From the NCBI RefSeq assembly GCF_055900595.2, contig NZ_JBVWEU010000005.1: 40,586 nucleotides of DNA. One strand, written 5' to 3'. The first letter of the stretch is position 1; each line of letters begins with the position of its first letter. Below the pieces are notes generated by a model. That model searched no databases. It saw nothing but the letters and a program-made list of their open reading frames with translations, and was not told the origin of the DNA. Of the stretch, positions 29,616 to 34,294 are shown piece by piece. The position numbers were made by a program, and so were the translations under genes. Source of the stretch: a plasmid.

Positions 29616-30059
29616 ATGAAAGCAGCAATGAAATTAACCTCCGTTATGGTGCTAATCGCAAGCCTGTTAACGACTGGCTGTGTATCTTCGAGTTATGGAA
29701 ACTATTCGAATGCTAACATGTTTGCCTCTGCAAGCATGGCTGATAACACCGTTGTTAATCTGGCAACGCTGTATCCTCCTGGACGTACAACATTCACGAT
29801 GAAACAACCTGCTAAAGATCCTTTCGGTTCAGCACTTGTTCAGCGTTTGCGTTCACGCGGTTATGCTGTCATCGAGTTCACGAAAGACGGCAAACCTCAG
29901 AGCACCTCAGGGACACCTCTTGGTTATGTTGTGAACACTATCGTTCCCAATCTCTACCAAGTCACAGCATTTGTGGGCGACGTCAAATTAAGCCGGGGAT
30001 TCGTTTTGGCAACAGACGGCAAGGCATACCCGGCTGGCCCATGGACTCGCGAGGAATAA
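29616..30059 (+). CDS. trbH: TrbH lipoprotein (VirB7-like)
   Basis: 147 aa, lipobox LLTTGC. Confidence 0.7.
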   Translation: MKAAMKLTSVMVLIASLLTTGCVSSSYGNYSNANMFASASMADNTVVNLATLYPPGRTTFTMKQPAKDPFGSALVQRLRSRGYAVIEFTKDGKPQSTSGTPLGYVVNTIVPNLYQVTAFVGDVKLSRGFVLATDGKAYPAGPWTREE

Positions 30060-31469: not shown

Positions 31470-32240
31470 ATGAATACACGTTTCGTTTTAGCCGCTAAAA
31501 AAGCGTTACTAGCTTCCTTCGTGGCGTCAATCATGGCCCTACCTGCGAAAGCTGGTATTCCTGTTATTGATGCTACTAATGTGGTGCAGACCACAATCAG
31601 CGCTGTCAATAACGTTCAGGCTGTGGCTAAACAGATCCAACAGTATCAGACGCAGTTGCAACAATATGAAAACATGCTGAGAAACACAGTCGCACCTGCG
31701 GCCTATATATGGGATCAGGCCAATTCAACTATCAACAAATTATTGCAGGCACAGGACACTCTTAATTACTACAAAAATCAGGCCGGGAGTCTTGACTCAT
31801 ATCTAAAACGTTATCAGGACATTAATTACTACCGTTCATCGCCATGCTTTAACAGTAATGTTGAATGCACTGCAGATGAAATTAGCGCACTACGTAAAGC
31901 TGAACAAAATAACTCTGAGGCTCGTAAAAAGGCCAATGACGCTGTTTTTAAGGTTCTCGATGAACAGCAAGAAACACTGCAAAGAGATGCAGATAACCTT
32001 GCTGACTTACAAACTCAAGTAACTGGAGCACAGGGGCAAATGGAAGCTATTCAGGCCGCTAACCAGCTTGCCAGTGCGCAAACAAACCAGTTACTGCAAA
32101 TCCGCTCGCTTCTAGTTGCCCAGCAAAACGCTGCAACTACACTGGCGCAGGCTCAGGCCGATAAAGAGGCCCAGCAAGCGGCTGCATCAGAAACTTTTAG
32201 GGCAGGGACTTATACCAAAAGCCCCGCTCAATCTTGGTAA
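31470..32240 (+). CDS. trbJ: TrbJ (VirB5-like)
   Basis: 256 aa, signal peptide, coiled-coil; codons 5-10 carry a KorB operator. Confidence 0.8.
   Translation: MNTRFVLAAKKALLASFVASIMALPAKAGIPVIDATNVVQTTISAVNNVQAVAKQIQQYQTQLQQYENMLRNTVAPAAYIWDQANSTINKLLQAQDTLNYYKNQAGSLDSYLKRYQDINYYRSSPCFNSNVECTADEISALRKAEQNNSEARKKANDAVFKVLDEQQETLQRDADNLADLQTQVTGAQGQMEAIQAANQLASAQTNQLLQIRSLLVAQQNAATTLAQAQADKEAQQAAASETFRAGTYTKSPAQSW
31487..31499. promoter_or_regulatory. KorB operator (OB) TTTAGCCGCTAAA inside the trbJ coding sequence
   Basis: Perfect 13-bp palindrome encoding part of the TrbJ signal peptide (FVLAAKK). Confidence 0.7.
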
Positions 32241-32252
32241 GGTGGTACTCCT

Positions 32253-32426
32253 ATGAAATATATCATTCCTCTCATTCTGTCGGCGTTTTTTATCACTGCT
32301 TGCGACCCAAAAACCGATCCCAACCAGGTTGATTGCAATAAGTCAGTATCAAAGATGACTGACCAGGAAAAAACGCAATGTGGTAAATCAGGCGAATTTA
32401 CAAAAAGCCCCGAAAAGAAATGGTGA
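32253..32426 (+). CDS. trbK: TrbK-like small lipoprotein (candidate entry-exclusion protein); below the ORF-track size cutoff
   Basis: Hand-translated 57-aa ORF MKYIIPLILSAFFITACDPKTD... with lipobox FITAC, between trbJ and trbL as in RP4. Confidence 0.55.
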   Translation: MKYIIPLILSAFFITACDPKTDPNQVDCNKSVSKMTDQEKTQCGKSGEFTKSPEKKW

Positions 32427-32430
32427 CAGA

Positions 32431-33975
32431 ATGAAATTCAGGCATCTAATTTATCCTTGCTTATCTGTGTTGCTGATATTAATCAGCACACAGGCACAGG
32501 CTGCGCCATTAGATAGTGCTGGGTTACTTGATGATATCCTTAAGCGCTTTGCAAATGTTGCCAGCACCTGGGCTGGAACCATACAAAATTACGCGACCTG
32601 GATATTTTGGTCATTAGCGGTAATTTCAATGGTATGGACATTCGCAATGATGGCAATGCAGGGCGAAGGATTATCGGCAGCTCTTGCGGAAGTAGTTCGT
32701 TTTTTTGCTGTGTTAGGTTTTTTCTTCTATCTGCTAAAAAACGGCCCGGCAATATCGGTAGATATTCAGGATTCATTACGTCAACTCGCGGCTAATGCTT
32801 CTGGTTTATCAAAATCATTCTCGCCTTCGGGCATTGTAGATATAGGGTTTGATATCGTATCAAGAGTCGTTGACCAGTCTTCTATTTGGTCCCCGGCAGA
32901 CTCCACTGTCGGCTTGATTTTAGCCGGAGTTATTCTATGCGTATTAGCACTTGTCGGTGTGAATATGCTTCTTCTGCTGATTACCGGCTGGATTTTAAGT
33001 TACGGCGGTATTTTCTTACTCGGTTTTGGGGGGTCTCGTTGGACTTCCGATATTGCCATTACATACTTCAAAACAGTTCTAGGAATTGCCCTGCAGCTGT
33101 TCACAATGGTTCTAATTGTTGGTATTGGAAAATCCTTCATAGACCAGTATTACCAGGCAATGGGCGATGACGCAGTACAAATGAAATCTATGTTTGTAAT
33201 GCTTGTAGCCTCAATTGTTCTTTTGGTTCTTGTTAATAAAGTTCCTCCTATGGTTGGCAGTATTGTAGGCGGTGCTTCAATGCAAGGCATTGGTGGCTTT
33301 GGTGCCGGTGCAATTATTGGGGCTGCAGCTGCAGCAGGAGCCGCAATAGCAGCAGCTGGCGCTGCTGCGGCAGCAGGTGCTGCAAATGCTGCCGGAGGTG
33401 CATCAGCACTTAAAGCGGCATTTGAATCGGCACAAGCAGCGATGGCCGAAGAGTCTAGTACTGGTAGTAAAGGCGGTTCAGGTGGAGGATTTGGCAGTGG
33501 GGAGGATACCGGTTCTGTAGATACTTCTGGAGGACAACCATCAGGCGGTTCCGGTGGTTCGTCTGCAGAGAACAGTACAGGTAGTTCCAGTGGAGGAAGC
33601 CAGGGCTTTGCTTCATCATTCTCACGAGCTGGCCGCATGGCTTCGCATATGGCGAATAGTTTGGCTAACGGCCTGGCTGCACGCAATGCAGCCAAGCATG
33701 ACTCAAAAGTCAGAGCGGCAAGAGACATCATTGCACAAACTCCAGGTGGAAAGCTCGCTTCTCAAATCCGTTCGCAAACTGTTGAACGTCAATCGAACAA
33801 CACAGAAGAATCTTTTGGCTACGGGAGCATAACAACAAGTAACAAGTTCAACGGCGACAGTCTTGGAGGGGAGGAGCAAACAACGACTCAAACAGAAAAT
33901 ACTGGTTCTATAGATACACAAACATCACAAAGTGGTGATGAATACGAACAATTTAAAAACAAGTCAAAGTTCTGA
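32431..33975 (+). CDS. trbL: TrbL (VirB6-like) with Gly/Ala/Ser-rich C-terminal tail
   Basis: Track ORF 32380..33975; start moved to the internal ATG at 32431 (MKFRHLIYPCLSVLL..., signal-like) to avoid overlap with trbK. Multiple TM segments. Confidence 0.8.
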   Translation: MKFRHLIYPCLSVLLILISTQAQAAPLDSAGLLDDILKRFANVASTWAGTIQNYATWIFWSLAVISMVWTFAMMAMQGEGLSAALAEVVRFFAVLGFFFYLLKNGPAISVDIQDSLRQLAANASGLSKSFSPSGIVDIGFDIVSRVVDQSSIWSPADSTVGLILAGVILCVLALVGVNMLLLLITGWILSYGGIFLLGFGGSRWTSDIAITYFKTVLGIALQLFTMVLIVGIGKSFIDQYYQAMGDDAVQMKSMFVMLVASIVLLVLVNKVPPMVGSIVGGASMQGIGGFGAGAIIGAAAAAGAAIAAAGAAAAAGAANAAGGASALKAAFESAQAAMAEESSTGSKGGSGGGFGSGEDTGSVDTSGGQPSGGSGGSSAENSTGSSSGGSQGFASSFSRAGRMASHMANSLANGLAARNAAKHDSKVRAARDIIAQTPGGKLASQIRSQTVERQSNNTEESFGYGSITTSNKFNGDSLGGEEQTTTQTENTGSIDTQTSQSGDEYEQFKNKSKF

Positions 33976-33985
33976 GGCTATTAAT

Positions 33986-34294
33986 ATGAAAAAATATCTA
34001 TCAGTTACATTGATGGCATTATCTATTAGTATTTACAGCATTCCAACAAAGGCGGCAGATCCATGCCAACCCGTATTATGCATGTGGGGATTGGTTGCCA
34101 CAGGTAGTGTCCAGGATGGTTGTTCGGGGAGTGTGAACAACTATTTCAGTCAAATCAGCTTCAAGCATGGAAAATTCAGCGCAAGTCGAACAGAGAAAAA
34201 AAGAAGAGGATGGCTAACTAATAATTGTCCATCAGCTTCACCTGCTTACGTAGATAAAATACAGAATAAATTTGGTCGTCTACGCTTTTTTTGA
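33986..34294 (+). CDS. small secreted Cys-containing protein (TrbM position)
   Basis: Track ORF 33932..34294; the internal ATG at 33986 starts a signal peptide MKKYLSVTLMALSISIYSIPTKA. Confidence 0.5.
   Translation: MKKYLSVTLMALSISIYSIPTKAADPCQPVLCMWGLVATGSVQDGCSGSVNNYFSQISFKHGKFSASRTEKKRRGWLTNNCPSASPAYVDKIQNKFGRLRFF

Follow-up and report, generated by a model that had tools for sequence, protein, structure and literature searches.

A probable trbK gene on an IncP-1-type plasmid and the covarying C-terminal tails of TrbJ and TrbK

The gene between trbJ and trbL

The stretch of DNA here analysed, hereafter the window, spans 40,586 nucleotides, and on its + strand it contains, at 32253..32426, a coding sequence of 57 codons plus stop that is located between trbJ and trbL on an IncP-1-type plasmid of ~41 kb. 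This ORF begins with ATG and translates as MKYIIPLILSAFFITACDPKTDPNQVDCNKSVSKMTDQEKTQCGKSGEFTKSPEKKW, the same 57-aa product that the first-pass annotation had read between both genes, and its assignment as trbK relies on an HMM match, homologues and dN/dS ratios. On its 5' side it is neighboured by trbH, trbI and trbJ, and on its 3' side by trbL, a small KikA/TrbM-like gene and trbN. The adjacent trbJ (31470..32240, + strand) encodes a VirB5-type protein of 256 aa (NCBIfam NF010452, 383 bits), and trbL (32431..33975, + strand) a VirB6-type protein of 514 aa (TIGR02783, 313 bits), both genes carrying these names in the record of an identical plasmid. A Shine-Dalgarno sequence for the ORF, AAGGTGG, can be read at 32239..32245 (+ strand), 7 nt 5' of the ATG and overlapping the trbJ stop codon. 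At the other end, the stop codon finishes at 32426 and the trbL ATG lies at 32431, leaving a gap of 4 nt rather than the 5 bp previously counted. Since no + strand promoter or terminator was found separating trbJ, the ORF and trbL, the gene is probably co-transcribed within the trb operon.

Over 25 kb, the window shows a 98% match to ~41 kb enterobacterial plasmids of the IncP-1-type backbone, the matched plasmids being MOBP and MPF_T and the PLSDB replicon type being rep_cluster_2175. As annotated in the near-identical NZ_CP075702.1, the backbone includes trfA, ssb, kle, kfr, a korA/incC/korB-type region, the Tra2 genes trbB-trbN and the Tra1 genes traC-traM, in agreement with the set by which an IncP-1-type backbone is recognised (trfA-ssb, korA/incC/korB-type, kle/kfr, trbB-trbN and traC-traM).

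Regarding other features of this neighbourhood, the C-terminal third of TrbL (33250-33750) is a Gly/Ala/Ser-rich region of low complexity, from which a long but spurious antisense ORF of 193 aa (33150..33731) arises. A 102-aa protein is encoded 3' of trbL, at 33986-34294, and all its TrbM matches are sub-threshold; named 'hypothetical' in the RefSeq record of the identical plasmid and 'IncN plasmid KikA protein' in pJJ1886_4, this product looks like a TrbM/KikA-type protein of reduced length. The TrbH-like lipoprotein encoded at 29616-30059, an analogue of VirB7, falls under every NCBIfam TrbH cut-off, gives a Pfam TrbH match of 66 bits, and is labelled 'hypothetical protein' in the identical RefSeq record.

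When the ORF was compared with three relatives, dN/dS ratios in the trbK frame were 0.12 (versus pJJ1886_4) and 0.15 (versus a Pantoea element), which shows purifying selection in this frame. By tblastn the protein was detected on 92 plasmid records, in 88 of them nearly full length, and the protein search retrieved seven clusters, one of them present on 521 contigs. Moreover, an alignment of 65 TrbK homologues, taken from 3' of TrbJ genes in diverse bacteria, displayed an invariant lipobox cysteine at position 17 and two further cysteines, Cys28 and Cys43, each at least 90% conserved. The gene is not new, because an identical protein, WP_019842051.1, already carries the annotation 'entry exclusion lipoprotein TrbK' in the public records of about 20 plasmids; it is a known gene publicly annotated as trbK, and no discovery is involved. 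Its earlier description as unlisted holds for the first-stage ORF track, where, as had been stated, the default minimum of 60 aa omits an ORF of 57 aa, and does not hold for the public RefSeq records, which do list trbK.

That same ORF list confirms that trbL is extended upstream across the ORF, as had also been indicated. The longest-ORF rule calls a TrbL of 531 aa from a GTG at 32380, and the 17 additional codons (32380..32430, + strand) run in another frame over the 3' end of trbK; this extension is a spurious product of longest-ORF calling. Considering that (i) purifying selection acts in the trbK frame, (ii) a Shine-Dalgarno site precedes the ORF, (iii) the lipoprotein is kept across the 65 homologues with its lipobox cysteine invariant, and (iv) in the RefSeq record of the identical plasmid trbL begins at the counterpart of 32431, the Met from which the TrbL N-termini and signal peptides also align in R751 and in the RP4-type backbone, there is next to no probability that the ORF is a chance frame and the true coding sequence the longer TrbL from GTG 32380, even if the longest-ORF rule yields that protein and an older GenBank record, KC170283, likewise annotates trbL across the trbK region. 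A metagenome protein, P0006 (JGI name LpoB), corresponds to a frameshifted trbK that reads into the frame of the trbL extension.

Assignment to TrbK and lipoprotein features

The 57-aa protein scores 26.1 bits with the NCBIfam equivalog model TIGR04359 (TrbK_RP4) against a cut-off of 23 (E 6.4e-6), a small margin of 3 bits, and its residues 7-57 align on profile positions 6-67 of 67. With the EexN model NCBIfam NF033894 it scores 15.7 bits, under the cut-off of 33, and the Pfam search assigned no family to it. Its identity to TrbK of pBS228 (RP4-type backbone) and of R751 is 33-35%, and in both plasmids the trbJ-trbK-trbL order is the same as in the window. As TrbK of RP4/RK2 (IncP-1alpha) and R751 (IncP-1beta), the protein is encoded between trbJ and trbL, has a lipoprotein signal and belongs to the same NCBIfam family. 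The three proteins also have in common a mature Cys-Asp-x-Lys start, two further cysteines, and a C-terminal end of the form G-x-F-x-x-S-x-x-K-x-W, a motif present in the window TrbK. They differ, on the contrary, in length (57 aa in the window versus 69 aa in RP4 and 75 aa in R751, the mature forms having 41 versus about 47 aa), in the +3 residue, which is Pro in the window, and in the tail, EFTKSPEKKW in the window versus GFKPSEKKEW in RP4 and DFKPSPKREW in R751. TrbK of IncP-1alpha RP4/RK2 is said to have been described by Haase, Kalkum and Lanka in 1996.

A lipoprotein signal peptide is predicted at residues 1-16, MKYIIPLILSAFFITA (32253..32300, + strand), with the lipobox I-T-A-C and the codon of Cys17 at 32301-32303. 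The lipobox already perceived in the first reading agrees with a PROSITE-type rule (PS51257-type), which matches MKYIIPLILSAFFITAC through ITAC, Cys17 and a Lys within the first 7 residues, Asp being found at +2. Following this rule and the homologue alignment, mature TrbK would have 41 aa (32301..32423, + strand) and would contain Cys17, Asp18 at +2, and Cys28 and Cys43, which are a probable disulfide pair. Taking together the position of the gene, the lipobox with Asp at +2, the HMM score above the cut-off, the identity to TrbK of RP4 and R751, and the shared cysteines and C-terminal motif, the ORF is very probably trbK, an exclusion lipoprotein gene, which upholds the TrbK-like candidate put forward initially. 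The best explanation overall, in which we have good confidence, is that it represents the trbK gene of a conjugative plasmid with an IncP-1-type backbone.

For TrbK of this clade, lipidation, localisation and exclusion are predicted by homology. The protein would be translated from the trb operon transcript, and its precursor, once exported, would receive its lipid at Cys17 and be processed by signal peptidase II, as expected from its sequence and from RP4 TrbK. On the same grounds, Asp at +2, noted for TrbK as a retention signal for the inner (cytoplasmic) membrane (PMC8923210), would hold it on the periplasmic face of this membrane. By homology, the 41-aa mature TrbK of a plasmid-carrying cell would block the entry of DNA from a mating apparatus of the same type. 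The mature start (32301-32309) reads Cys-Asp-Pro in the window plasmid and 20 others, Cys-Asp-Gln in commoner relatives, and Cys-Asp-Asn in RP4 and R751. The +3 residue modulates Lol avoidance in E. coli, and the localisation of the Cys-Asp-Pro variant could differ from that of its relatives.

A small lipoprotein encoded inside a T4SS operon might also be envisaged as a structural, VirB7-like part of the apparatus, needed for transfer and with no exclusion function. This is very improbable, given that the VirB7-like lipoprotein of Trb systems is TrbH, present at 29616-30059, that the HMM match is to an exclusion family, and that deletion of trbK impairs neither the T4SS activity of RP4 (PMC11045733) nor the transfer of pKPC_UVA01 (PMC8923210).

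A C-terminal tail common to TrbJ and TrbK

C-terminal ends of both proteins were then compared within the window, where TrbJ and TrbK are the only carriers of the motif. The TrbJ tail (aa 245-256; 32202..32237, + strand) reads AGTYTKSPAQSW, while that of TrbK (aa 46-57; 32388..32423, + strand) reads SGEFTKSPEKKW. Equivalent pairs end in EGSYRASPSKTW (TrbJ) and GGFKPSEKKEW (TrbK) in the RP4-type backbone, and in QGSYRASPARTW (TrbJ) and GGDFKPSPKREW (TrbK) in R751. Profile-profile alignment with hhalign placed TrbK 37-57 on TrbJ 231-256 for the window's class (E 1.3e-5), and the TrbK C-terminus on the TrbJ C-terminus over 31 columns for the NWLEL class (E 7.4e-10). These alignments, as well as the covariation among systems, indicate homology at the sequence level between the final ~12-30 residues of TrbK and the C-terminal end of TrbJ (VirB5), encoded next to it, with the TrbK tail appearing as a copy of that of TrbJ.

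In the AF2 model of TrbJ, which is of low confidence (pLDDT 63), the last helix comprises residues 186-244 and is followed by a coil at 245-256 with low pLDDT; in that of TrbK, also of low confidence (pLDDT 65), the tail is a coil directly after a helix. The PDB sequence search with TrbJ provided nothing relevant. Among 68 TrbJ sequences, the last column conserved to at least 90% is Ala238, and the tail columns beyond it are variable. trbK is seemingly frameshifted or truncated at two loci, L005 (2740-2847) and L016 (3774-3965), with loss of the TrbJ-like tail in both; one of them lies on a contig from a Flavobacterium psychrophilum bin, probably enterobacterial plasmid DNA that was binned wrongly, and the other is from Phytobacter massiliensis.

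For a wider comparison, 80 loci encoding TrbJ relatives were fetched from GTDB genomes, and a lipobox ORF 3' of trbJ was extracted in 73 loci, the window and reference plasmids being counted. Their tails fall into at least ten very different types, and at each locus the TrbK tail matches that of its own TrbJ. Thus, the respective tails of TrbJ and TrbK are GENTPSPKRIW and GNNNPSPKREW in the L006 type, GSYSHGTNKSW and GHFSSGENKKW in L007, RIERTASPRNWLELTR and GIAPTEKPMNWLELAD.. in the NWLEL type, LFDMGEPTDRSENRGF and LWDMGEPTDRSKNKGF in L035, EQMRTWTFRPSPADNY and KQMRQWEFKPSPKDNY in L060, YEGLSEPVNRSHSKEY and YDSLKEPVDRSKSKEF in L066, and GPGALPSSPMRW and GPDTLPTNPKRW in L077. When scored as best local BLOSUM62 alignments, the 59 unique pairs gave a mean of 48.3 for cognate tails, versus 23.6 for non-cognate ones and 16.0 +/- 3.9 after shuffling. 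A further test on 17 pairs, consisting of one representative per type plus pTiC58, R388 and R46, yielded a cognate sum of 813 versus 318 +/- 42 for permuted pairs (maximum 585), a sum that none of 100000 permutations reached; in 13 of these 17 pairs the best match of the TrbJ tail was its own TrbK tail. Since shared ancestry alone gives no excess within a locus, the excess of cognate over non-cognate scores points to concerted change.

In pTiC58 the tails end in ARREQFFNAPTNDIRGGQTMEPRW (TrbJ) and ARREQRERFFGGDPDRDVRGGQEMKPRW (TrbK), and in R388 in GNQGMPTIQ (TrwJ) and QGDGMPKIR (Eex), the matches of R46 and R388 being short and weak. Matching VirB5 and Eex tails were also found in eight further EexN-type loci; among systems of this type, the respective tails are MNARRGFSPLKPVDF and MNARRGFTPLKPVKF in X. 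fragariae, SSGSLRNVNW and SSGSLRHINNW in Serratia, and REYTKHQPFNLL and RGYTKHAPINAL in Variovorax. For nine EexN-type systems the cognate sum was 306 versus 139 +/- 27 when permuted, and the cognate partner ranked first in eight of the nine. Judging from these scores, the tails covary in IncP-1 plasmids, ICEs, pTiC58, R388 and EexN systems. No mention of the TrbJ/TrbK tail likeness was found in the accessible literature, to which Haase 1996 and Cho 2009 do not belong. Some EexN-type loci contain an extra ORF of ~150 aa between virB5 and eex (L090, 764-1204, and L092, 707-1204; Xanthomonas fragariae and Variovorax), whose tail is unlike that of VirB5.

The codons used for the tails were also considered. 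Residues identical in the TrbJ and TrbK tails have the same codon in 218 of 442 cases, and this codon identity of only 49% implies that the match is mostly kept at the protein level. Shared codons are particularly few in L035 (3/12), L071 (1/10) and L046 (0/5). Other lineages have a recently converted look, with identical codons at 12 of 14 positions in L023 and 9 of 14 in L051, and such DNA-level identity (e.g., in L023) indicates that gene conversion contributes.

Natural chimeras provide a further view of this concerted change. TrbJ of an IncP-1beta-type locus (L050; 3013-3762) has a body of 207 aa that is 99.5-100% identical to that of two ICE-type loci (L052 and L080), while the last 17-23 residues are wholly different and in each case match the TrbK encoded 3'. 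At these loci the N-terminal two-thirds of TrbK are conserved between the classes and the tails differ. Two separate DNA segments thus change in step. Around the chimeras, blastn gave no match for the flanking trbI, and identity in trbL is only 69%.

Two other origins of the likeness were evaluated and rejected. A single recombination block covering the 3' end of trbJ and trbK is insufficient, as the 5' two-thirds of trbK are conserved while both tails change. A nucleotide constraint, imposed by the position of the tail next to the ribosome-binding site of the following gene, is likewise discarded, because overlap with an SD-like sequence is limited to the final one or two codons and the likeness spans 12-30 residues with divergent codons.

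A possible role of the tail in entry exclusion

The above comparisons allow proposing a mechanism in which the functional part of TrbK would be its C-terminal tail, ending in SGEFTKSPEKKW, as a covarying copy of the unstructured TrbJ tail. TrbJ would be the VirB5-type protein that caps the pilus and the stalk; the VirB5 pentamer sits on VirB6 and reaches the pilus tip (PMC9259494). TrbK would then display a TrbJ-like tail on the periplasmic side of the recipient inner membrane, where this tail might occupy the place in the arriving donor apparatus at which the TrbJ tail is normally recognised, with the TrbJ pentamer (through a homotypic contact) or TrbL/VirB6 as candidate receptors. Such engagement would stall a step after contact, and the type of tail would define the exclusion group. 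We consider this tail mimicry by TrbK to be evenly balanced between true and false.

Several reports bear on this proposal. The C-terminus of TrbK is needed for exclusion in RP4, as far as Haase 1996 is related in PMC8923210, and the C-terminal region of pKPC_UVA01 TrbK is required for exclusion as well (PMC8923210). Recipients that have only TrbJ or only TrbK are protected against the RP4 apparatus, whereas R388 and R6K do not protect (PMC11045733), and both TrbJ and TrbK of Ti plasmids exclude (PMC3907764, PMC4231840). In Xanthomonas, a periplasmic factor protects from the cell's own T4SS by binding VirB5, and the authors of that study propose testing VirB5 for conjugative exclusion (bioRxiv 10.64898/2026.05.09.723464). 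On the contrary, exclusion in F, SXT and IncC is directed at the VirB6-like TraG of the donor and not at VirB5 (PMC11493245), which counts against the mechanism, and pKPC_UVA01 TrbK excludes R751 and R46 despite low similarity (PMC8923210), a broad range that speaks against strict tail specificity. The short, weak tail matches of R46 and R388 and the DNA-level identity of the tails in some lineages also count against it.

A general reading may be formulated for VirB/Trb-type systems (IncP-1, Tn4371-like ICEs, Ti, IncW and IncN/EexN), according to which the product of the exclusion gene situated between those of VirB5 and VirB6 would be a membrane anchor bearing a copy of the cognate VirB5 tail, both tails would coevolve, and the tail would set exclusion and its group specificity; we would give it an equal chance of being right or wrong. 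If true, it would explain exclusion by TrbJ alone, and the donor-side partner in IncP, IncN and IncW exclusion, a target described as unknown in 2024 (PMC11493245), would be the site that recognises the VirB5 tail.

The main alternative is that TrbK recognises the VirB6-type TrbL of the donor, as TraS of F and Eex of SXT/IncC do with their target, the tail likeness being a by-product, either because trbK was derived from or converted by the 3' end of trbJ or because both tails dock TrbL within the cell that makes them. In IncP, IncN and IncW plasmids the exclusion gene lies directly next to the VirB6 gene, the VirB6-type TraG is the proven target in F, SXT and IncC (PMC11493245), the R388 structure has one VirB5 subunit bound between two VirB6 subunits (PMC9259494), mobilisable islands carry trbJ, trbK and trbL together (PMC5704250), and the near-identical tail DNA of L023 and L051 suggests conversion. 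Nonetheless, most lineages match at the protein level with diverged synonymous sites, as in L035, L071 and L046, and TrbJ alone in recipients excludes or protects (PMC11045733, PMC3907764), which would hardly be expected if the TrbK-TrbL contact were all that mattered. This alternative appears rather unlikely to us, and it overlaps with tail mimicry, since TrbL may itself be the receptor of the tail.

Comparison with known exclusion systems helps to situate the window protein. EexN lipoproteins of IncN (pKM101/R46) and IncW (R388) plasmids are similarly small, are encoded between VirB5 and VirB6 genes, and have a tail that copies that of the cognate VirB5; unlike them, the window TrbK lacks the conserved CKxNPG core and stays below the cut-off of the EexN HMM. 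Ti plasmids have the same trbJ-trbK-trbL order, and the last ~25 residues of their TrbK and TrbJ are clearly homologous (ARREQ..FF..P..D[IV]RGGQ.M.PRW). However, Ti TrbK lacks a lipobox and is anchored by a transmembrane segment, and, the principle of a shared tail apart, it resembles the window protein in no detectable way. TrbK and TrbJ of Ti plasmids are reportedly the subject of work by Cho, Pinto and Winans from 2009. In the TraS/TraG system of F and the Eex/TraG systems of SXT and IncC, a recipient inner-membrane protein also stops DNA entry after mating-pair formation, and specificity groups exist as well. Their proteins are, in contrast, unrelated to TrbK, their target being the VirB6-like TraG and the determinants cytoplasmic (PMC11493245), and no mimicry of a donor-protein tail has been described for TraS/Eex systems. 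Finally, Tpf XAC2611 of the Xanthomonas antibacterial T4SS, as proposed for TrbK, works in the periplasm of the target cell, where it stops a VirB-type T4SS arriving from outside; it is kin-specific and acts on VirB5 (bioRxiv 10.64898/2026.05.09.723464). Unlike TrbK, this globular DUF4189 protein of 164 aa is neither a lipoprotein nor provided with a tail copy, and its VirB5 binding was seen by pull-down.

The trbK gene itself is of little weight, having been correctly guessed, being already annotated, and lying on a common enterobacterial IncP-1-type backbone, relatives of which carry mcr and other resistance genes. The part that deserves the attention of specialists is the covarying TrbJ/TrbK tail. 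A short, swappable tail of VirB5 and exclusion protein would be directly open to experiment, by exchanging tails or by competition with peptides, the tail type could allow exclusion groups to be predicted from sequence, and a tail peptide is a possible starting point for hindering broad-host-range resistance plasmids from spreading.

With regard to exclusion specificity in the plasmid group of the window, which according to the first reading may differ, the closest backbones (TrbJ 81-89% identical to that of the window) display four matched tail pairs, corresponding to the window, L012, L007 and L006 types. These four matched variants would fit distinct exclusion groups within this group of backbones, in keeping with that initial guess. 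The window TrbJ tail scores 33 versus the TrbK tail of R751 and 43 versus that of its own TrbK, and by this measure the window tail still resembles the IncP-1beta one.
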